NCBI GenBank assembly: GCA_944320495.1
Contig: CALUHR010000002.1
Location: forward strand, 36,609 to 100,608
Origin: Candidatus Methanomethylophilaceae archaeon
Lineage (GTDB): Archaea > Thermoplasmatota > Thermoplasmata > Methanomassiliicoccales > Methanomethylophilaceae
Length of the DNA stretch: 64,000 nt
Reading direction: 5' to 3'
Within the stretch, counting starts at the first letter, position 1. Each line of letters starts with the position of its first letter. The notes beneath the pieces were generated by a model. That model was given only the letters and a program-made list of their open reading frames with translations. It was not told where the DNA came from and made no database searches. Shown one piece after another: positions 10,315-52,217 of the stretch. A program made the translations under genes and the position numbers.

Positions 10315-11172
10315 TCGTCCGGACCTGCGGACTGCCATGACCGCGATCGCCATGAACAGGGCGGTGACTGCGAGCGAGTACACCAGGGACGCGACCGCCG
10401 AGAACTCGAATCCTCCCAGCGCCAGGTCGAACCCCATGTCCGTCCTGAAGCCCTCTAGGACATCCGCGGGCGCTCCGGAGAACACGTCCCCAAGGGCCTC
10501 GGAGCACAGCGCCTCACGGAACAGCGCGGCCATCTGGCTGGCCGGGACCAGAGTCCCCACGACCTGCATCGCCTCTGGCATGGTGCCCATCGGCATGTAG
10601 ATGCCAGACAGGAACCCGATCATCACGCTGACCACGGTGAAGAACCCGGAGAACGCCCCGGTGCTCCTGATGAACGACACCATCGCATACACGATTACCG
10701 AACCGGTAAGAGCCGAAGGTACCAGGAGGACGATGCACTCCGCGACACCGGCGGCGGACAGCGGGCAGCCCACGGCGACCAAGTACGCGAGGCATATCAC
10801 AAGAGCGATCAGGCTCATGACCAGGCCGGACGCGAAGGTGCTCAGCACGTGACCACCGACGACCTCCCACCTGCTCAGGGGCGTGACGGCGATGTCCCTG
10901 TCCCTTCCGGACACACGGTCCTCGACCATGGTCTGCAGCGAACCCGCCGAGGCCGTGACGGGGACGATGCCCAGGATGCCCGCCATCACCCATGCGTCGA
11001 TGAGATGGGGCATCCCGTCCATCTCCGGGTACGAGGAGATGAGGATGTCCCTCAGGAACAGCAGGTACAGCAGCACCACGATGAGGACGGCCATCAGCGA
11101 GAACAGGACCGACTGCCTGTCGCGAAGATAGCACAGGGTGTTCCTCTTCGCCAGTGCCAGCATCCCGCTCAT
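10315..11172 (-). CDS. ABC-2 type permease (end placed at in-frame CGA 10315-10317; standard code reads through to 9931)
   Basis: ABC-2 TM pattern, FLSGIYMP; last TM ends ...MAVRRSG then CGA and a 42-nt spacer. Confidence 0.8.
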
Positions 11173-12228: not shown

Positions 12229-12301
12229 TGCTCCCGACGGGATTTGAACCCGTGTCGAAGCCTCGAGAGGGCTTCATGATTGGCCGCTACACTACAGGAG
12301 C
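12229..12301 (-). tRNA. tRNA-Glu(CTC)
   Basis: Cloverleaf GCTCCTG...; anticodon arm AAGCC-CTCTCGA-GGCTT; GGTTCAAATCC T-arm; TATA-like TTATATAC upstream (12327-12334). Confidence 0.95.
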
Positions 12302-12345
12302 TTGTTAAACCTGGGAATGCTCCCATGTATATAATGTTTTCGGTA

Positions 12346-13128
12346 TCGGAAGTCACTCGGGCGGATCGCAGGCAGTCTCTTGTGCTCCATGGACCTCACC
12401 TGAGCCCTGATTCTGGCGATTTCGGACAGTTCGAGACCCGTGTCTGCGGCGATCTGCGAGTCTGAACAGTCACGCTCGAGATCGAACAGGATGCCGTCGA
12501 GATCCTCGTACCTGATGCCCATCTCCGACTCGTCAGTCTGTCCCTCCCAGAGCCCGGCGGACGGGGGCTTGGCGATTATGTCCTCCGGGACGCCGATGAT
12601 CCTGGCCAGCTGCCTGACCTCGGTCTTGTAGAGGTTGGCGAGCGGAGTGACGTCGCATGCGCCGTCGCCGAACTTCGTGAAGTATCCCATCATGATCTCG
12701 CTCTGGTTCGACGTACCGAACACCAGGTAGTCTCTCTTCTTCGCCATGTTGTACAGGACGATCATCCTGCATCTGGCGGAGATGTTTCCCCTCTCCAGAG
12801 GCGTCTCCTTCCCGGACAACAGGACCGCCGCCAGGGCGTCCACCGCGGGCTGGATGTCGACCACCTTGTACTCGGCCCCCCACATCGAGCTCAGTTCCGA
12901 GGTGACCTTGTAGTCCTCGGCGGGCGTCACACGGGAGGGCATGAAGATGTTGAGCACCCTGTCGGGACCCAGCGCGTCCGCGCACAGTTTGGTGACCGTG
13001 GCGGAGTCCAGACCTCCGCTGAGACCGACCACCGCTCCCTTGCATCCCGTGCGCTCGGCGGTGGTGCGGATGAATGAGACGAGGGCATCAGCATCCTCTC
13101 TGGTGACCTGCGGGATCTTGGACGACAT
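12346..13128 (-). CDS. nadE: NH3-dependent NAD+ synthetase (end placed at CGA 12346-12348; standard code runs into tRNA-Glu, TAG at 12292)
   Basis: GLSGGLDS, GYFTKFGDG, PPSAGLW motifs. Confidence 0.92.
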
Positions 13129-14666: not shown

Positions 14667-15671
14667 ATGAGGGTTTTCATCTGCGGATTCGGAACAGTGG
14701 GACAGGGCTTCTGTGAGGTCCTGGCCGCCCGCCGCCAGTTCCTCATAGACCGCTACGGGGAGCCAGTCACCGTCGTCGGGGCCATGGATTCCAAGACCTA
14801 CGCCTACAACCCGAACGGGTTCGACCCCCTGGAGCTCGTCTCCGTCAAGCAGGGGACGGGGAGGGTCGGCACTGAGACGTACCAGGACTCCGTCGAGGTC
14901 CTCTCCGGAGCGGAGTTCGACATCCTCGTTGAGGTCAGCCCCACCGATGTGAAGACCGGCGGAGCCGGACTCAGGAACATAGAGTACGCGCTCGGCAACG
15001 GGAAGGATGTCATCACGGTCAACAAGGGCCCGCTGGCCCTGAAATTCCGCCATCTCATAGACCTGGCCGAGAGCAACGGATGCTGCCTCCGCTTCGAGGG
15101 ATCCGTCGGCGGCGCCATGCCCATCATCAACCTCTGCCGCGACAACCTGGCCGGAGAGAGGATAGAATCCATACGCGGCATATTCAACGGAACATGCAAC
15201 TTCATACTCAGCAAGATGGACACCGGACAGCCGTTCGAGCAGGTCCTCAAGGAGGCCCAGCAGATGGGCTACGCCGAGACGGACCCGACAAACGACATCG
15301 AGGGGTACGACAGCGCGTGCAAGGTCGTCATCCTCGCCAACGCCGTGTTCGGCCGCGACGTCACGTTCAACGACGTGAGGATCACCGGCATCACATCGAT
15401 CACCGAGGACGCCATCTCCCTGGCCGCCTCGCACAACATGGTCATAAGGCTCATAGGTGAGGTCTCCGAGAGCAAGCTGGAGGTGGGGCCCAGGCTCGTG
15501 CCCAGAGGACACCCCCTCGGCATCTCTGGGACACTGAACACCGCCCAGATCCTGTCCGACCTCGCCGGACCGGTAACGGTCACCGGCAGGGGTGCTGGCA
15601 GGATCGAGACCGCCTCGGCGATACTGAGCGACCTCATATCCATCATGGACGAGAGGGCGAGACGGCGATGA
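14667..15671 (+). CDS. hom: Homoserine dehydrogenase (ends CGA-TGA)
   Basis: GFGTVG, TVNKGP, FEGSVGG, GIFNGT, GYAETDP, GRGAG. Confidence 0.95.
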
Positions 15672-20711: not shown

Positions 20712-21590
20712 ATGTACCAGCACACATAGATGACGTTCGAGAGCATGGAATCGGAGATCCAGGACCTCAGCTTCCACAGTGCCGTCCTGAGAAGGGACTC
20801 CCGCTCCGGTAGGCATTGGGATTCAACCGTCATGAGAACCCCCGATGGGAGCTTCACCAATCTCGCCCTCATCTTCTCTGACCAGTGCCCCTGGTCCTGC
20901 GAGATCCGCGTGGACGGCGATGCGGAGTACGTCGCGACTGGATCAGTACTCGAACAGATTCATGTCGTCGGACAGCAGGTAGTCACCATCCGCCGCAGGC
21001 TTTCGGAGAAGGCTGGGACCGGGGTGACGAAGATACAGGGTCTGGCGTTCTCGGAGGTCCTGCTCAACGCCATCTGCCATCGCAGCTACTGCGATCCCTC
21101 GCCCATAGTGGTGGATGTGAATCTGGAATGCACAACAGTGACCTCCCCCGGCGGCATGATGAGACTGGGGATAAGCTACAGGGAGCGCACGAGGAACCCG
21201 CGTCTGACCGAGATTCTCGTATCCATGGGATACAAGAACACGGCCATACGCGGCATGGCGGGTGTCAGGAGGGCCTATCGCAGCTGCTAGTACAGGCCGG
21301 AGGTAACCGTCGGGGATTCATGGAGCGTCAGCCTGCCGGGGATGGTGGAGCTCGGCTCCGCCTATGAGGGCAGGAGATGCAACGTCATCAGATACATGCT
21401 GGGACACGGCCCCGTAGACGAGGATGAGATCGTGAGAAGGCTCGGGATGGCGGCATCCACGGCGCACGAGGTCCTGTGCAGGATGACCGACGAGGGCGTC
21501 CTGTTCTCCATGGGAGACAGGGATGACAGGAGGTTCTTCCTGAGTGACAGACCCAGATGGGCAGGCATCGCGAACGGACACCGTCACTGA
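20712..21590 (+). CDS. RecG-C/ATP-binding + wHTH regulator-like protein with in-frame TAG codons (candidate Pyl protein or pseudogene)
   Basis: TNLALIFSDQC, EVLLNAICHRSY, RNPRL motifs; ORFs 20730-21290 and 21342-21590 share one frame separated by TAG 21288-21290; another TAG at 20727-20729 follows ATG 20712. Confidence 0.6.
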
Positions 21591-24545: not shown

Positions 24546-25803
24546 GGACGTCCCTTCCGATTGGTTCGCCGCAGAACTCTCCGTCCCGTACTTGAAGGCT
24601 TCCCCTGACGCAGACGCATCTCGGGAAGACGGCCGGGAACCCCCCGTAGGGGGAGTGGCCACACCTGCTGTGCAGACGGGGCACGTCTATGGGTGCGGAC
24701 CGCCTGAGGTCGAAGATCGCGAGGTCCGCATCGTAGCCCTCGGCAATCCTGCCCTTGGGGACGTCGAACAGCCTGCCGGCGTTGTACGATCCCATCCTGA
24801 CCGCCTCGGACAGCTGGAGATCGCCCCTGCGGACCATCTCCATCATCATGGGCACCGCCGTCTCCACACCCGGTATGCCTGACGGCGCCTCGGCGAACGG
24901 ACGGTCCTTCTCGTCGGCCGCATGGGGCGCGTGGTCGGTCCCGAGCATGTCGAACCCGCCCCCCATGAAGAGGGCGCGGAGGGCCTCCCTGTTGCGGGCG
25001 TCCCTCAGCGGGGGGTTCACCTTGTACTCGGCGCCGGGGTTGCGATCGGCGTCGAAGGTGATGTGGTGCATCGTGCATTCGGTGGAGAAGCCTGCATCCC
25101 TCGCCATGGCCAGACCCTCTGGGGTGGTCAGATGGCAGATGTTGATGCTGGATCCGCGGAAGTTCGCGGCCAGTCTGGAGATGGCCTTCCACTCCGCTTC
25201 GGCCGGACGGTTCCTCAGGTGGTCCCTGCAGCACCGCTCCTCCCCCTTCGATATGAAATGGTCGTCCTCAGCGTGGACGCTCATGCGCCTGCCGGTGGCG
25301 AGCACGTCCCTGACCGCCGGGATCATCTCCTCGTCGTCGTCCAGGAGGATGTTCCCAGTCGTCGATCCCATGAACAGCTTGAACCCCACGACGAGCGGCG
25401 CCAGCATCCCGGCGTTGATTCCCGCGGTGACCGCCGCGAACAGACCGTAGTCCGTGACGGCCTTCCTGCCGACGACGGCCTTCTTCTCCGTGAACGTGCG
25501 GACGTCGGTGACGGGCGGCACGGTGTTGGGCATGTCGTACACGCAGGTCACTCCCGCGTGGACCGCAGCTAGCGTCCCGGTGCCGAAGTCCTCCTTCCCG
25601 GTCATCCCGGGGTCGCGGAGATGCACATGTGGATCGATGAACCCGGGCAGCATGACGTCGCTGGTCCCCAGCTCGATCCTCCTGTCCCCTCCACGCACCA
25701 TGCTGCCTACGGAGACTATCCTCCCGTCACAGATCCCGACCTCGGTGTACCTGAGCTCCCCGTCGACGAGGGCCCTGCCGCACACCACGGTCTCGATGTC
25801 CAA
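24535..25803 (-). CDS. pyrC: Dihydroorotase (end placed at CGA 24535-24537, 422 aa; standard code gives 623 aa)
   Basis: PGFIDPHVHLRDPG, DMPNT, KVNPPLR, GTDHAPH, GIPGVET. Confidence 0.92.
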
Positions 25804-26389
25804 TGTCCTCCCTCCGGACGATGTCGCCGCGCGGGGTGGTCTCGCGCCAGGCCTCGCCCGTGAAGGTCTCTATCCTGGCCCCCTCGCGCCTCCATGTTCC
25901 CGGCGGGAGACCCGCCTTCATGCAGAGATGGTCGAGGTACTCCTCCTTGTCCCAGCCCTGCTCAACGGGGACCTGCGGGAGGAACAGCCCTCTGCGGCCC
26001 ATGAACGATAGTATCAGCCCGTCGCGTCCGATGACGATGCTCTTCAGAATCCCCTCGGGCGTGTCCGCGCGTATCGCCTCCGGCCTGCTCAGGACGGTGA
26101 CCTCGACGGTCACGCCGCCGAGCTCCCCGGGGGACAGGCGGGGGAACCTCGGATCGTTGCAGGCGGATCCGGCCGCCTCGACGATAGCCCTGCCCAGCGG
26201 CATCACGGGCATGGGGATCCCTATGCATCCGCGGAGCTCTCCGGCTGGGAACGTGTCCAGGGTGACGAACGCCCCTGCGGAGTCCGAGAAGGCGCCGATG
26301 TCGGGGATCGCCGGTGCCGGACGGCCCGAGGCCTCGGCCTCCACGGCCGATCTGGCCAGTCTAACTGCCTCCTCGCCCTGGAGCATCAT
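25793..26389 (-). CDS. AMMECR1-family protein (end placed at CGA 25793-25795)
   Basis: GAFVTL, LRGCIG, DPRFP, GLFLPQVPVEQGW. Confidence 0.9.
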
Positions 26390-26841
26390 CGCTCACCGAC
26401 ACCCTTGAAGACGCCGTCCGCGTCCCTGCGGTCGTCGGAGACGATCTCGACCCTCTTGGGGGCCTCCCTGCGGCATTCGTGGGCCCTGCAGGCGGCGTCC
26501 TTCATGGTGGCCTCGGTGCTGCGGAACCCGTCCCTGACGGGAGCCGGCATGGGAGCGCGCTCCATCAGGGCGCTCATGCCCATGAAGAACTCCAGGCCCA
26601 TGTTCACGAAGTGCCTCTGCACCTCGGGGTCTGTGAATGCCGAATAGGCAGTGCGGGCGAGGTCCTCCGCCCTGGCGCGGGACTCGTCGGCGAATCCCCT
26701 GGCGTGCCCGTAGGCCTGCCTGGCCGCGTCCCTCTCGGCATCGACGAACTCCCTGGCGGCGCTCTTCTGCGTCTCGATCATCCTCTCTATGAGGTCCCTG
26801 TTGTTTGCGACGAACGCCTCGAACTCTTCATCTGTGGTCAT
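26386..26841 (-). CDS. Hypothetical helical protein (ends CGA-TGA)
   Basis: 151-aa ORF coupled to both neighbours. Confidence 0.75.
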   Translation of the reverse strand: MTTDEEFEAFVANNRDLIERMIETQKSAAREFVDAERDAARQAYGHARGFADESRARAEDLARTAYSAFTDPEVQRHFVNMGLEFFMGMSALMERAPMPAPVRDGFRSTEATMKDAACRAHECRREAPKRVEIVSDDRRDADGVFKGVGER

Positions 26842-49324: not shown

Positions 49325-50557
49325 TCAGTTGGGCCTGTACCTCAGAAGGGCGGCCACGCCTCCGAACGCCTTCAGGAGCATGTCCCCCTCCTCGGAATCG
49401 CCCGAGATCAGCTGCAGGCGGGTGTTGTACGCATCCGCCCTGTTGAAGAAGTCGTCGATCAGGTCCTCGTCCTTCGTGACGGTGGCGGACTGCCCGCACT
49501 CGGGGCACTGGAACTTCTGGTCCGCGTCGGCCACTGTCTTCTCGTGGATGTGCCCGTTGGGGCACTCGAGGGTGATCCTGCGCTTCTTGAGGGAATCCGA
49601 CAGGAGGAGCATGTCCACTGCGCCCATGTCCAGGGCGCTGCGGACCTCGTCCTCTCCGTAGCACGAGAGACCGCCGTCCGCCTTGCGGATCTCGGTGAAG
49701 AGCCTCTGCATGTACACCTTCTCCTGGGTGAGCTGCATGTCCGTGATGATCCCCTGCGCATTCTGGACCAGCTCCCTCAGGCCGGATTCGTCCGTGTAAC
49801 CGGTATCGACCAGCGGGCTGACGACCTTCTTCCTCAGCTCGTGGTGGAGGTACTCCTCCTTGACGAAGAACTCCTTCGTCGCGCCGGGCCCGCCTATCAG
49901 GATGCCCAGGAGCTCCGGGCGGTTGAGGAAGACCTCGGTCGCGTTGTCGGCCACCTTCTTGAAGAACTCGTGGGCCGCGATCTCGATCAGCCTCTCGAAA
50001 CGGACGGACGACTGACCTCCCTGGTGGTGCTTGCTCGGGACGAGCGAGTCGAAGTGCTTCAACACCTGGATCCTGCTCCCCGACAGTATGCCCAGGGTGG
50101 CCTCGGACCTGTCGATGGTGATCAGACCGTAGCATTTCTTGTCCAGGAGCATGGACTCCAGCGGCTCGGTGAAGAATGTGGAGTCGCACCTGTACAGGAA
50201 CGCCGTGATCGGCTCCGGGGGGTTGATGACGTACTGGACCATCTTGGTCTGGTCGCCCGCCCTGGGAACCTCTCCGCAGAAGATGACGACGCCGTTCTCC
50301 GGCGGTGACTTGTAGGTTTTGAGTCGAGCGGCTATCGAATCGATCGCGCTCTGGACGTTCTTCATCGTGGTCTTGGACTTGATGTTGGACGCCTGGGACT
50401 GCTCGTTCCTCAGGTAGGCCATGACGTCGGAGATCTGCTTGGTCTTGGGGACGTAGACGGAGATGAGCTCCGTGCTCCTGCCCCTGTAGTTCTGGATCTC
50501 CTGCATGTCCTTCTTGAAGTCGTACTTCGCCCTGTCCTCGGAGTTCTTGTCTGCCAT
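49325..50557 (-). CDS. prf1: Peptide chain release factor aRF1 (contains in-frame CGA at codon 78)
   Basis: ASNIKS, YRCDSTF, GGQS motifs. Confidence 0.97.
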   Translation of the reverse strand: MADKNSEDRAKYDFKKDMQEIQNYRGRSTELISVYVPKTKQISDVMAYLRNEQSQASNIKSKTTMKNVQSAIDSIAARLKTYKSPPENGVVIFCGEVPRAGDQTKMVQYVINPPEPITAFLYRCDSTFFTEPLESMLLDKKCYGLITIDRSEATLGILSGSRIQVLKHFDSLVPSKHHQGGQSSVRFERLIEIAAHEFFKKVADNATEVFLNRPELLGILIGGPGATKEFFVKEEYLHHELRKKVVSPLVDTGYTDESGLRELVQNAQGIITDMQLTQEKVYMQRLFTEIRKADGGLSCYGEDEVRSALDMGAVDMLLLSDSLKKRRITLECPNGHIHEKTVADADQKFQCPECGQSATVTKDEDLIDDFFNRADAYNTRLQLISGDSEEGDMLLKAFGGVAALLRYRPN

Positions 50558-50697: not shown

Positions 50698-51381
50698 ATG
50701 GACAAGGTTGTGGTCTCCGTCGGCGGATCGGTCCTGATCCCCGGTAACAACGATTCCGAGTACATCTCCAGGCTGGCCGGCATGCTCTCCTCCGTCAAGG
50801 ACGAGGTCCAGCTGGCCGTCGTCTGCGGGGGAGGGCGCACCGCCCGCTACTACGCGACCACCGGCCGCGAGCTCGGAGGGGACACATACCAGCTCGACAT
50901 CATGGGGATCGCCGCCACCAGGATCAACGCCCAGCTCCTCGGGGTCGCCCTCGGCGACATGCCGGAGCGCGTGCCCGAGACCGCGGCGGAGACCGCCAGG
51001 GCCTCCGAGCCCGGAAGGATAGTCGTCATGGGAGGGACCGAACCCGGCCATACGACCGACGCCGTCGCCATGATGGTCGCCCGCGAGATGGGGGCGGACC
51101 GCGTGGTGAATGCCACGGCCGTCGATGCCGTGTACACCGCCGACCCCCGCAAGGATCCGAACGCGGAGAAGATACCCAGGATGACCATCGAACGCCTCGG
51201 CGAGCTCGTCTACAAGGAGCACGACGCCTCCGCGTCCAGCGTCTTCGACCCCCTCGGGGTGCAGATAGCCAGGGAGTCCCGCATCGACATTTCGATGGTT
51301 GACGGCAGGAACGTCGAGGAGCTCAGGAAGGCCATCCTCGGACAGCCGTTCGACGGGACCTTCGTGGATTCTCACAACTGA
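50698..51381 (+). CDS. pyrH: Uridylate kinase
   Basis: VVSVGGS, VVCGGG, PGHTTD, DPRKDPNA. Confidence 0.95.
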   Translation: MDKVVVSVGGSVLIPGNNDSEYISRLAGMLSSVKDEVQLAVVCGGGRTARYYATTGRELGGDTYQLDIMGIAATRINAQLLGVALGDMPERVPETAAETARASEPGRIVVMGGTEPGHTTDAVAMMVAREMGADRVVNATAVDAVYTADPRKDPNAEKIPRMTIERLGELVYKEHDASASSVFDPLGVQIARESRIDISMVDGRNVEELRKAILGQPFDGTFVDSHN

Positions 51382-51383
51382 GA

Positions 51384-52217
51384 TCGGAGCGGCTCGAAGT
51401 CCTTCGACTTCACGCACTCGTATCCCAGCGACGCCGCTATGTCCGCGATGCGGTGCTCCTCGGGCCCCTTCATCGACTTGCGGTGGATGTAGACGGAGTC
51501 CGTGGCCGTCGCCTCGCAGGCGTCCCTTATCATCCTGGCTATGTCCTCGTCGCCCCTCCCCTCGAGCTGATAGTTCGGGATCATGTGGCCGAAGTTCACC
51601 CTGCTCGACAGGGCGGCCTCCGTGAACCTTGGGGCGTAGTGTCCCCCTCCGATCCCCACGAGGCTGCGGTACTCGTCGTGCGGCTCCAGGTCGGCGATGA
51701 CATGTGCCAGCACCTCCGCGAGATGCCTGTCTCCCCAGTGGGTCTCGTCACTTCCGATCTCGATGTAGAAGGTCGGCTTCCCGAGCCACGGGCCGTGATG
51801 CGTGACCTCGAAGCATGTCTGGACGGACGGGTCCGAGTTCAGCGCGTGGATTCTCCTGACGGCGTCGGTCATCGCGGCCGGTGCCGATCTCACCAGCGTC
51901 TCCGTCCTCCCGCCGAAATCCGCCTCGTGGTAGTTGCCGATCGGATGGGCGGTCAGCGCCGGGCGTCCGCTCTTGGACGAATGCCTCGACATCACGACCA
52001 CATAGTCCGGGTCCACCCCGAACCTCGCGGCCTCCAGATCCAGGTCCTCATGCCTGATGTGCATGTCCGCTATGCTCATCATCACGTCGTCCTCCCTGCG
52101 CATGTAGGAGGCCCCCTCGGAGGACCCCATGTCCTCCCATCCGCCCTGGGACAGGAGGGACTCCCTCATGTTGACGGACGGGAGGTCCGCCTCGCTGCAT
52201 ACGATGAGCCTGGACAT
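51384..52217 (-). CDS. dtdA: D-aminoacyl-tRNA deacylase (archaeal DTD2 type; end placed at CGA 51384-51386)
   Basis: SRHSS, LTAHPIGN, EVTHHGP, EIGS, GGGHYAP. Confidence 0.9.

Follow-up and report, generated by a model that had tools for sequence, protein, structure and literature searches.

Why does the gene for the protein that ends translation keep an in-frame CGA codon in a genome that has almost removed CGA from its genes and ends about 15% of them with it? The question was raised by a 64,000-nt stretch of DNA (the window) from a Candidatus Methanomethylophilaceae archaeon (assembly GCA_944320495.1, contig CALUHR010000002.1), a member of a family of gut methanogens. An initial annotation noted CGA at codon 78 of the aRF1 gene as the only internal CGA, proposed by analogy with bacterial prfB that aRF1 truncates its own synthesis there, and suggested alignment of aRF1 genes from relatives as a test. 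On analysis, the codon proved to be exactly as described and the observation holds. The interpretation is partly supported, since the comparative evidence argues for selection on the presence of the codon whereas the feedback itself is inferred.

The aRF1 gene and its internal CGA

The aRF1 protein is full-length. Pfam profiles for all three eRF1 domains (PF03463, PF03464, and PF03465; eRF1_1, eRF1_2, and eRF1_3) scored above their cutoffs, and the NCBIfam equivalog TIGR03676 scored 544 bits against a cutoff of 234.7, covering residues 11-408 of 410. The motifs NIKS (residues 58-61), YRCDSTF (residues 122-128; YxCxxxF), and GGQ (residues 180-182) are present. R78 aligns with Arg in the conserved (A/S)RL(K/R) segment of every relative examined, and the conserved protein continues in the same frame directly after the CGA, with residues 79-410 holding most of domain 1 and all of domains 2 and 3. 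The features of the locus are collected in Table 1.

Table 1. Features at the aRF1 locus (window positions).
Position	Strand	Feature	Observation
49325..50557	-	aRF1 gene, 410 codons plus TGA stop	Full-length protein requires CGA at codon 78 to be read as Arg
50324..50326	-	In-frame CGA, codon 78, a conserved Arg of the N domain	Proposed regulatory stop-or-Arg decision point; sequence context GCT CGA CTC AAA
50322..50329	-	Conserved 8-nt context (G/T)CT-CGA-CT	Rare T-ending codon 77 (GCT or TCT) before the CGA; Leu79 as CTN after it
50327..50557	-	Codons 1-77	Hypothetical product if translation ends at CGA78, a 77-residue N-terminal fragment that includes NIKS; read from the sequence alone
50318..50320	-	AAA at Lys80	Rare codon recurrent two codons after the CGA; AAA in 35 of 47 genus genes, against about 8% of Lys codons genome-wide
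51384..51386	-	Terminal CGA of the neighboring gene (ORF 51372-52217)	Orthologs end in TGA at 68 loci, CGA at 14, and TAA at 3

Within the window, the claim that this is the only internal CGA holds. The other 16 in-frame CGAs in window ORFs lie in low-scoring 5′ extensions upstream of plausible true starts, at or near gene ends (positions 10317, 12348, 15666, 25795, 26391, and 51386), or in spurious low-scoring ORFs.

CGA usage in the genome

In order to determine how CGA is used genome-wide, we counted it by relative position in 813 confident ORFs, and the pattern was far beyond chance. Counts by decile were 192, 46, 3, 5, 2, 2, 2, 8, 18, and 148, whereas other rare codons were flat in the interior. 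After the first CGA in the second half of an ORF, the codon score fell from +0.41 to -0.52 and GC3 from 0.89 to 0.64, a fall not shown by any of 10 control codons. About 170 of 1114 confident genes end at CGA, with a median distance to the next standard stop of 15 codons and a maximum of 489. Orthologous gene ends swap between TGA and CGA, both at the neighboring gene listed in Table 1 and at the adjacent gene (50698-51381), which ends in TGA here but in CGA in 12 relatives. Taken together, CGA is nearly absent from conserved sense positions, is found at orthologous stop positions, and marks the end of the coding signal, as expected of a sense codon that has come to act as a terminator in this genome.

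The initial annotation had contrasted the C that follows CGA in aRF1 with T or G at ten terminal CGAs, and had likened stop+C to the leaky context of eukaryotic termination. This was not upheld. The base following about 170 terminal CGAs was T at 55%, C at 19%, G at 19%, and A at 7%, and in other lineages the aRF1 CGA is followed by G or T. We expected terminal CGAs followed by a base other than T to need closer backup stops, but the distance to the next standard stop did not differ from that at CGAs followed by T (Mann-Whitney p = 0.66).

Genome-wide, aRF1 is not the only gene with an internal CGA. Four were found: aRF1 R78, rpl18e R30, the gmhA-gmhB linker, and one accessory membrane protein. 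The CGA of rpl18e is invariant and that of gmhA-gmhB semi-conserved. A codon-score scan missed rpl18e because its ORF is fused upstream in the same frame, and it was recovered by a homology scan against the complete genome G015; aRF1 and rpl18e are the only two internal CGAs shared by the two genomes. Of seven CGAs with coding signal on both sides, three were dismissed on inspection, as a same-frame next gene with a recognizable start follows the CGA at C8:98215 and C1:9793 (contig:position), and C13:499017 is a low-scoring, probably spurious ORF. A fourth, C14:41696, was tentatively read as a terminal CGA, solely because the downstream translation does not look like protein.

Conservation of CGA in aRF1 genes

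We next compared aRF1 genes from related genomes, and the outcome was clearer than expected. In the genus, 45 of 47 distinct aRF1 genes have xCT-CGA-CTN at codons 77-79, while neighboring synonymous sites vary freely: codon 76 uses all four Ala codons and codon 79 uses four Leu codons. Codon 77 is xCT in the same proportion and is lost (TCA, GCC) in exactly the two genes that lack CGA78. These two genes carry a CGA elsewhere in aRF1, at codon 25 or 11. In families that use CGA normally, codon 78 varies freely (CGC, CGT, CGG, AGA). The patch of otherwise rare codons described around CGA78 in the initial annotation is only partly conserved, since xCT at codon 77, GAT at 73, and AAA at 80 recur in relatives but TCG74 and ATA75 are private to this genome.

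In the genus, aRF1 has 44 CGAs in 17,875 codons, against 6 in 76,532 neighboring aligned codons. In the family Methanomethylophilaceae, all 59 loci with no CGA in at least 900 neighboring codons have at least one CGA in aRF1, and 56 have exactly one. The positions in these loci are 9, 11, 25, 50, 78, and 123, all in the N domain and in the first 30% of the gene; R327 is the only CGA in locus L103, which is not among the 59 because it has one neighboring CGA. Seven or more different positions are used in the family. Other families show no significant enrichment (7.9 versus 4.8 per 1000). Frequent use of CGA as a gene terminator, by contrast, is confined to part of the genus (this genome and genomes G013 and G010), whereas the complete or large genomes G015, G008, G041, and G042 are depleted of CGA yet end only 0-2% of genes with it. 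The aRF1 CGA is therefore linked to CGA avoidance and not strictly to terminal CGA, and for most of the family, recognition of CGA by aRF1 rests only on avoidance.

Only 8% of terminal CGAs have T at -1, and CT is rare after real stops, following 1 of 170 CGA ends and 8 of 880 TGA ends. However, the C is imposed by the Leu codon, and the 3′ context is not uniform among lineages. RNAalifold on 20 genus sequences gave -11.6 kcal/mol with no compensatory pair, and an Rfam search found nothing in the aRF1 or rpl18e loci. In an alignment of 91 aRF1 sequences, NIKS, the GTS-like loop, and YxCxxxF were unchanged between CGA-depleted and normal lineages. Family-specific changes exist (KSK.TMK instead of KSQ.TRK; VPRAGDQT), but they are also present in family members that use CGA normally and do not discriminate.

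The cognate tRNA

The tRNA-Arg(UCG), able to decode CGA, is retained in this genome (C13:413317-413390) and was found in 24 of 25 genus genomes, the exception being G006, which is 93% complete. Plain BLAST missed it in the second clade of the genus and a covariance model was needed. The tRNA evolves fast, being 79-91% identical within the genus, while tRNA-Arg(GCG) is 99-100% identical. Compensatory changes keep four stem pairs. The anticodon arm is non-canonical in the genus: the 31:39 pair is always mismatched in the main clade, and the second clade has C33 plus a 27:43 mismatch. Other families have a canonical 5-bp stem. Since the cognate tRNA is not lost, the codon is ambiguous rather than cleanly reassigned.

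Discussion

The reading that we favor, with a probability of about 0.6, is that CGA is an ambiguous, stop-like codon for which aRF1 and a retained but altered tRNA-Arg(UCG) compete. In this view, when aRF1 activity is high relative to the tRNA, ribosomes would terminate at the early CGA of the aRF1 mRNA and release a 77-residue fragment, and when it is low, Arg would be inserted and full-length aRF1 made. This would be negative feedback by same-frame readthrough, not frameshift, holding the ratio of termination to decoding at CGA within bounds. Negative feedback predicts selection for an in-frame CGA in the release-factor gene. A plausible reason for such a brake is that the essential rpl18e gene carries a CGA fixed by an older nucleotide-level constraint, so that CGA decoding could never be allowed to fall to zero. 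The sequence analyses establish the codon, its conservation and relocation within aRF1, the purge of CGA and its use at gene ends in this genome, and the retention of an unusual tRNA. That aRF1 itself reads CGA, with C accepted at the first codon position despite unchanged recognition motifs, that readthrough is partial and depends on aRF1 dose, that full-length synthesis responds to aRF1 level, and the link to rpl18e are inferred from sequence without expression, ribosome-profiling, or proteomic data. The invariant CGA of rpl18e, a highly expressed essential gene, also shows that termination at CGA cannot be efficient in every context.

The strongest alternative, although doubtful, is that CGA is simply decoded very slowly because tRNA-Arg(UCG) is weak or scarce, and that stalled ribosomes are rescued or drop off, for example through aPelota/ABCE1, without recognition by aRF1. 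The CGA would then tie aRF1 output to the supply or charging of this tRNA. Consistent with this, most of the family avoids CGA yet hardly uses it as a terminator, the anticodon arm is unusual, no change in aRF1 recognition motifs is seen, and in G015 the "terminal" CGAs sit mostly within 10 codons of a standard stop, as expected for a hazardous codon tolerated only at the extreme C-terminus. However, this model gives no reason why the release-factor gene in particular should always keep a CGA, and both the roughly 170 genes of this genome that rely on CGA as their only nearby terminator and the interchange of TGA and CGA at orthologous ends need productive termination, not stalling.

Two further explanations are unlikely. 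The CGA could be kept as part of a DNA or RNA motif such as a binding site, antisense target, or structure, since the 8-nt block is invariant in the genus wherever CGA78 is present. This appears to be the case for rpl18e, where TCTGGCGAGA is invariant across seven families, in a comparison that did not include G045, a family member with normal CGA use; this 10-nt block occurs only once more in the genome, at chance level. Outside the genus, however, the aRF1 CGA sits at other positions (9, 11, 25, 50, 123, 327) with unrelated flanks and only an in-frame CGA in common, codon 78 varies freely in normal-code families, and neither covarying structure nor an Rfam match was found. Alternatively, C-to-U editing could convert CGA to UGA, making terminal CGAs ordinary stops and the aRF1 CGA a site of regulated editing. 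The TGA/CGA interchange, the T-rich 3′ context preferred at terminal CGAs, and the unchanged aRF1 motifs would fit, but mRNA C-to-U editing is not known in archaea, and editing explains neither the retention and co-evolution of a tRNA whose only unique codon is CGA nor why the release-factor gene keeps the site. Chance survival of an incomplete purge is very unlikely: although relatives that use CGA normally have it at the same, probably ancestral, aRF1 positions (R25, R27, R50, R78, and R123 in locus L108; R27, R50, and R123 in other families), nothing comparable survives in about 150,000 neighboring aligned codons, no depleted locus has zero, loss of CGA78 coincides twice with a CGA at a new position in nested lineages of the genus, and the synonymous -1 T is coupled to the CGA.

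Release factors that throttle their own synthesis through a stop signal in their own gene are a textbook case in bacteria. As in prfB (RF2; Craigen and Caskey; reviewed in PMC5009743), a class-I release-factor gene carries, early in its frame and conserved across a large clade, a codon on which the encoded factor would terminate, so that full-length synthesis would fall as factor activity rises. Here, however, the frame is unchanged, there is no slippery CUU-U or upstream Shine-Dalgarno-like stimulator, the codon is a former sense codon that moves between lineages, and the factor belongs to an unrelated family. The eRF1-type gene of Mimivirus/Megavirus (PMC3521657) likewise must be translated past in-frame stop signals, interpreted as bacterial-like autoregulation, but it is viral and combines frameshift and readthrough at two fixed standard stops, whereas the present gene is cellular and archaeal, with a single, relocatable CGA and a cognate tRNA. 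Plant eRF1-1 feeds back on its expression through readthrough at a stop signal in its own mRNA (PMC5397192), but there the signal is the normal terminal stop and the output is 3′UTR-triggered mRNA decay (NMD); here it lies inside the coding region and the output would be truncated versus full-length protein. Yeast eRF1/eRF3 can read CGA as a stop in competition with tRNA-Arg (PMC7379694), as a low-level side reaction at a poorly decoded codon, whereas here it has apparently become genome-shaping. tRNAs with a 4-bp anticodon stem change stop-codon decoding in Blastocrithidia, ciliates, and bacteria (PMC13092985), and the 31:39 pair is similarly lost in the main clade, but those are near-cognate tRNA-Trp(CCA) species gaining UGA, not the cognate tRNA of a sense codon becoming a stop, in which the mismatch may weaken or tune decoding. 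In the ambiguous codes of Condylostoma and other ciliates (PMC4967479) and of methanogens that use UAG as Pyl or stop (PMC12626013), one codon likewise has two outcomes in one cell and the genome is shaped to limit the damage, but there standard stops acquired a sense reading, whereas here a sense codon acquired a stop reading and the release-factor gene itself carries it. We found no autoregulation of this kind described for archaeal aRF1.

Standard-code annotation of these abundant gut and rumen methanogens wrongly extends or fuses many genes. In addition, Methanomethylophilus-type translation parts are widely used for genetic-code expansion, to which an unrecognized ambiguous codon and an unusual tRNA in this family are relevant. 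The pattern also shows a possible route by which a sense codon becomes a stop without killing the cell: the codon is first purged, then kept only where it regulates (aRF1) or cannot be changed (rpl18e), and in one sub-lineage is then recruited to end genes. A broader reading, which we consider about as likely as not, is that a whole archaeal family runs an ambiguous CGA codon (Arg or stop) governed by a translational homeostat, whose sensor is an obligatory but positionally mobile in-frame CGA in aRF1, whose counterweight is a retained, re-tuned tRNA-Arg(UCG), and in which an unremovable CGA in rpl18e is the reason the codon can never become a pure stop. If true, this would be the first release-factor autoregulation described in Archaea and a living intermediate of a sense-to-stop change of the genetic code in a free-living organism.

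CGA usage in the genome and in the aRF1 gene

The window (contig C2, 36609-100608) belongs to a 1.77-Mb, 62% G+C archaeal assembly of the Methanomethylophilaceae, near 'Candidatus Methanoprimaticola'. The gene under study encodes a 410-residue aRF1 that scored 544 bits against TIGR03676, has all three eRF1 domains, and carries the NIKS, YxCxxxF and GGQ motifs. Codon 78 of this gene is CGA, in the context GCT CGA CTC AAA, and aligns with an Arg that is conserved in every relative examined. The initial annotation had singled out this codon as the only internal CGA and as a candidate for RF2-like autoregulation of aRF1, and its observation of the codon was confirmed and could be extended. Locations of the features described are listed in the table.

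Locations of the features described. C numbers denote contigs of this genome unless G015, the complete genome of a genus member, is indicated; L numbers are loci used in the comparisons
Feature	Location	Strand	Codon of interest
aRF1 gene	window 49325-50557	minus	CGA (codon 78) at window 50326..50324
aRF1 codon 180 (first Gly of GGQ)	window 50018-50020	minus	GGA
aRF1 codon 186 (Arg)	window 50000-50002	minus	CGT
Gene ends with tandem CGA-TGA	window 15666-15671 and 26386-26391		CGATGA
Examples of ORFs ending in TAG	window 12292-13128, 20730-21290 and 24755-25450		TAG
rpl18e (locus L352)	C13:191557-191913	minus	CGA (codon 30) at C13:191826
GmhA-GmhB fusion (locus L112/L168)	C13:193618-194700		CGA at C13:194145
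tRNA-Arg(UCG) (locus L111/L115)	C13:413317-413390
NifH-like and NifD-like genes	C5:79790-82207 and G015:C1:1209619-1212072		CGA between the genes
Accessory membrane protein (locus L113)	C5:178082-179086		CGA at C5:178733
Terminal CGAs followed by a same-frame gene	C8:98215 and C1:9793		CGA
CGA read as terminal	C14:41696		CGA

Genes were called with an iterated codon-usage model, which gave 1400 ORFs. In 813 confident ORFs, CGA counts by relative position decile were 192, 46, 3, 5, 2, 2, 2, 8, 18 and 148, whereas CGT, CGG, AGA, CTA and other rare codons were flat in the interior. After the first CGA in the second half of an ORF (62 ORFs with tails of at least 8 codons), the mean codon score dropped from +0.41 to -0.52 and GC3 from 0.89 to 0.64, a fall that was shown by none of ten control codons. 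About 170 of 1114 confident genes end at CGA, while the others end at TGA (880), TAA (34) and TAG (30). The median distance from a terminal CGA to the next standard in-frame stop is 15 codons, with a maximum of 489, and the base following a terminal CGA is T in 55%, C in 19%, G in 19% and A in 7%. Eleven terminal CGAs genome-wide are followed directly by TGA, and at two such gene ends in the window the TGA overlaps the ATG of the next gene. At orthologous gene ends, relatives interchange TGA and CGA; for example, the two genes next to aRF1 show TGA 74 / CGA 12 and TGA 68 / CGA 14. NifH-like and NifD-like genes (probably cfbC and cfbD of F430 synthesis) lie in the same frame, separated by a CGA that is conserved in both this genome and G015, and standard-code annotation would fuse them into a single protein of about 800 residues. 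ORFs that end in TAG mostly have low coding scores, both in the window and genome-wide, which fits TAG being read as pyrrolysine in this order.

Internal CGA codons

A codon-score scan of the genome found seven CGAs with coding signal on both sides. On inspection, two were terminal CGAs followed by a same-frame next gene with a recognisable start, a third (on contig C14) was read as terminal because the downstream translation does not look like protein, and one more sits in an ORF that is probably spurious. A homology scan against G015 found only two internal CGAs shared by both genomes, namely aRF1 R78 and rpl18e R30. Two further cases exist in this genome. The first is the linker of a GmhA-GmhB fusion, which is Lys (AAA) in a normal-code family, whereas in the genus it is CGA in 11 genomes, AGA in 2, AAG in 1 and TAG in 2; two genomes carry a CGA eight codons downstream, one of which has AAG at the linker. 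This may be a programmed leaky stop that yields both GmhA alone and the fusion protein. The second is an accessory membrane protein with a true internal CGA followed by CTG and two transmembrane helices; homologues were found in only two genus genomes and lack the segment containing the CGA. Within the window, aRF1 is the only gene with a true internal CGA.

Conservation of an in-frame CGA in aRF1

Among 47 distinct aRF1 coding sequences of the genus (82-100% protein identity), codon 78 is CGA in 45. Codon 77 is GCT or TCT, both rare codons here, in the same 45, whereas codon 76 uses all four Ala codons, codon 79 uses four Leu codons and codon 81 uses all four Thr codons. Of the two exceptions, one has AAG at codon 78 and a CGA at R25, and the other has AGA at codon 78 and a CGA at position 11. 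Both have lost the T before codon 78, and both are nested inside CGA78 clades. Elsewhere in the gene, the first Gly of GGQ is GGA and Arg186 is the rare codon CGT in all 47 sequences, these being the only two zero-variation columns among 137 conserved columns of four-fold or higher degeneracy.

In about 100 Methanomethylophilaceae loci, every aRF1 has at least one in-frame CGA, whereas the roughly 2000 aligned codons of neighbouring genes usually have none. After removal of duplicates and low-confidence ORFs, the genus showed 44 CGA in 17,875 aRF1 codons against 6 in 76,532 neighbouring codons, and the rest of the family 63 in 16,718 against 33 in 72,830. In other families of the order, the counts were 22 in 2,802 against 26 in 5,455, which is not significant. 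All 59 loci with no CGA in at least 900 neighbouring codons have at least one CGA in aRF1, and 56 have exactly one. The positions in those 59 loci are 9, 11, 25, 50, 78 and 123; R327 is the only CGA in the aRF1 of L103, a family locus that has one neighbouring CGA and so is not among the 59. Because these sequences are related, p-values from such comparisons overstate the case; however, the variety of positions and the two relocations are independent events. Family members that use CGA normally (loci L108 and L109) carry CGA at several of these same Arg positions, and the sites are therefore probably ancestral, with different lineages having kept different ones. Contigs carrying clear Methanomethylophilaceae aRF1 genes (loci L032, L034, L035, L044, L048, L051, L052 and L079) are deposited in bins named Ruminococcus, Bifidobacteriaceae, Lachnospiraceae, Prevotella, Dialister, Bacteroidaceae and Anaerovoracaceae, and these look like binning errors in public MAGs.

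Avoidance of CGA and its use as a terminator

Samples of 80 kb showed that the family genomes G041, G042 and G008 are as depleted as this genome (1-2 CGA in about 13,000 mid-gene codons) but have almost no terminal CGAs, whereas G045, of the same family, and G030, of another family, use CGA normally. Within the genus, genes ending at CGA number 5 of 29 in genome G013 and 3 of 12 in G010, while the fraction is 0-5% in G004, G006, G007, G008, G015, G019 and G020. The whole G015 genome gave decile counts of 117, 13, 2, 1, 1, 0, 0, 0, 0 and 17, and about 27 of its 1311 genes end at CGA, mostly within ten codons of a standard stop. The aRF1 CGA therefore tracks CGA avoidance, which is family-wide, and frequent CGA termination is a later development in the sub-lineage that includes this genome. 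The sampling thus does not support the view that the whole genus ends a quarter of its genes at CGA.

The cognate tRNA

ARAGORN identified a tRNA with anticodon UCG in this genome, with a short D loop and a 4-nt variable loop. A covariance model built from 11 orthologues recovered it in 19 of 25 genus genomes. In those 19, the 31:39 pair is always a mismatch (A.A, C.A or U.C), which is conserved across the main clade of the genus, while compensatory changes keep pairs 27-30/40-43; the D loop is short. Five further genus genomes (G005, G007, G008, G015 and G019), forming a second clade, have a different version with the loop CCUCGAC, in which C replaces the near-universal U at position 33, and a 27:43 mismatch. 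Families that use CGA normally have a canonical five-pair stem with C31-G39, and other depleted family members range from canonical (G042) to slightly weakened (G041 and another family genome, G044). The tRNA is only 79-91% identical within the genus, whereas tRNA-Arg(GCG) is identical or differs by one base, and tRNA-Arg(UCG) evolves much faster. CGG has its own tRNA(CCG) here, so CGA is the only codon that needs tRNA-Arg(UCG).

A conserved CGA in rpl18e

Codon 30 of ribosomal protein L18e is CGA in 30 of 30 family genomes from eight genera, and also in 9 of 9 genomes from six other families that use CGA normally; overall, it is CGA in all 40 genomes checked, spanning seven families of the order. 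The codon lies in a 10-nt block, TCTGGCGAGA, that is invariant across all 17 aligned sequences, while flanking synonymous sites vary. This CGA therefore appears to be held by a nucleotide-level constraint that is older than the purge of CGA and unrelated to it. An Rfam search returned no match, and a search of the genome for the block found no informative second copy. It follows that CGA must still be readable as Arg everywhere, which explains why the tRNA is retained, and that termination at CGA cannot be efficient in every context.

Proposed mechanism

We propose that aRF1 and tRNA-Arg(UCG) compete at CGA, and that one in-frame CGA early in the aRF1 mRNA would make full-length aRF1 synthesis fall as aRF1 activity rises relative to the tRNA. 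In this view, the process is same-frame readthrough rather than a prfB-type frameshift. An early position would give a short fragment, and all six positions in the 59 fully depleted loci lie in the first 30% of the gene, although the seventh, R327 in L103, does not. The need to keep L18e synthesis going would give a reason for such a governor. The finding that yeast eRF1/eRF3 can release on CGA in competition with the tRNA makes the chemistry plausible (PMC7379694), and autoregulatory stops in release-factor genes are known in bacteria, in Mimivirus (PMC3521657) and, in another form, in plants (PMC5397192). A literature search found no paper describing CGA termination or aRF1 autoregulation in this family, although one preprint raises a possible CGA stop in two unrelated vent archaea that lack tRNA(UCG) (10.64898/2026.04.02.715157).

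While the position, conservation and relocation of the aRF1 CGA were read directly from the sequences, the competition and the resulting autoregulation are inferred from sequence comparison alone, and no recognition-motif change in aRF1 was found to track the phenomenon. The idea that codon 78 lies in a leaky context was only partly borne out. The T preceding CGA78 is coupled to the codon, and CT is rare after real stops; however, the +4 C is dictated by Leu79, other lineages have G or T at this position, and tail lengths do not depend on the +4 base. A sensor of tRNA supply, without direct recognition of CGA by aRF1, remains a serious rival for the lineages that do not use CGA as a terminator.

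Taken together, the interpretation offered in the initial annotation was supported in part. Autoregulation is the best available reading, and it passes the comparison of aRF1 genes across related genomes that had been set out in advance as its test, but it is still an inference. The principle of a release factor that limits its own synthesis is already known, whereas here it would act through same-frame readthrough of CGA, set inside an undescribed change of the genetic code.
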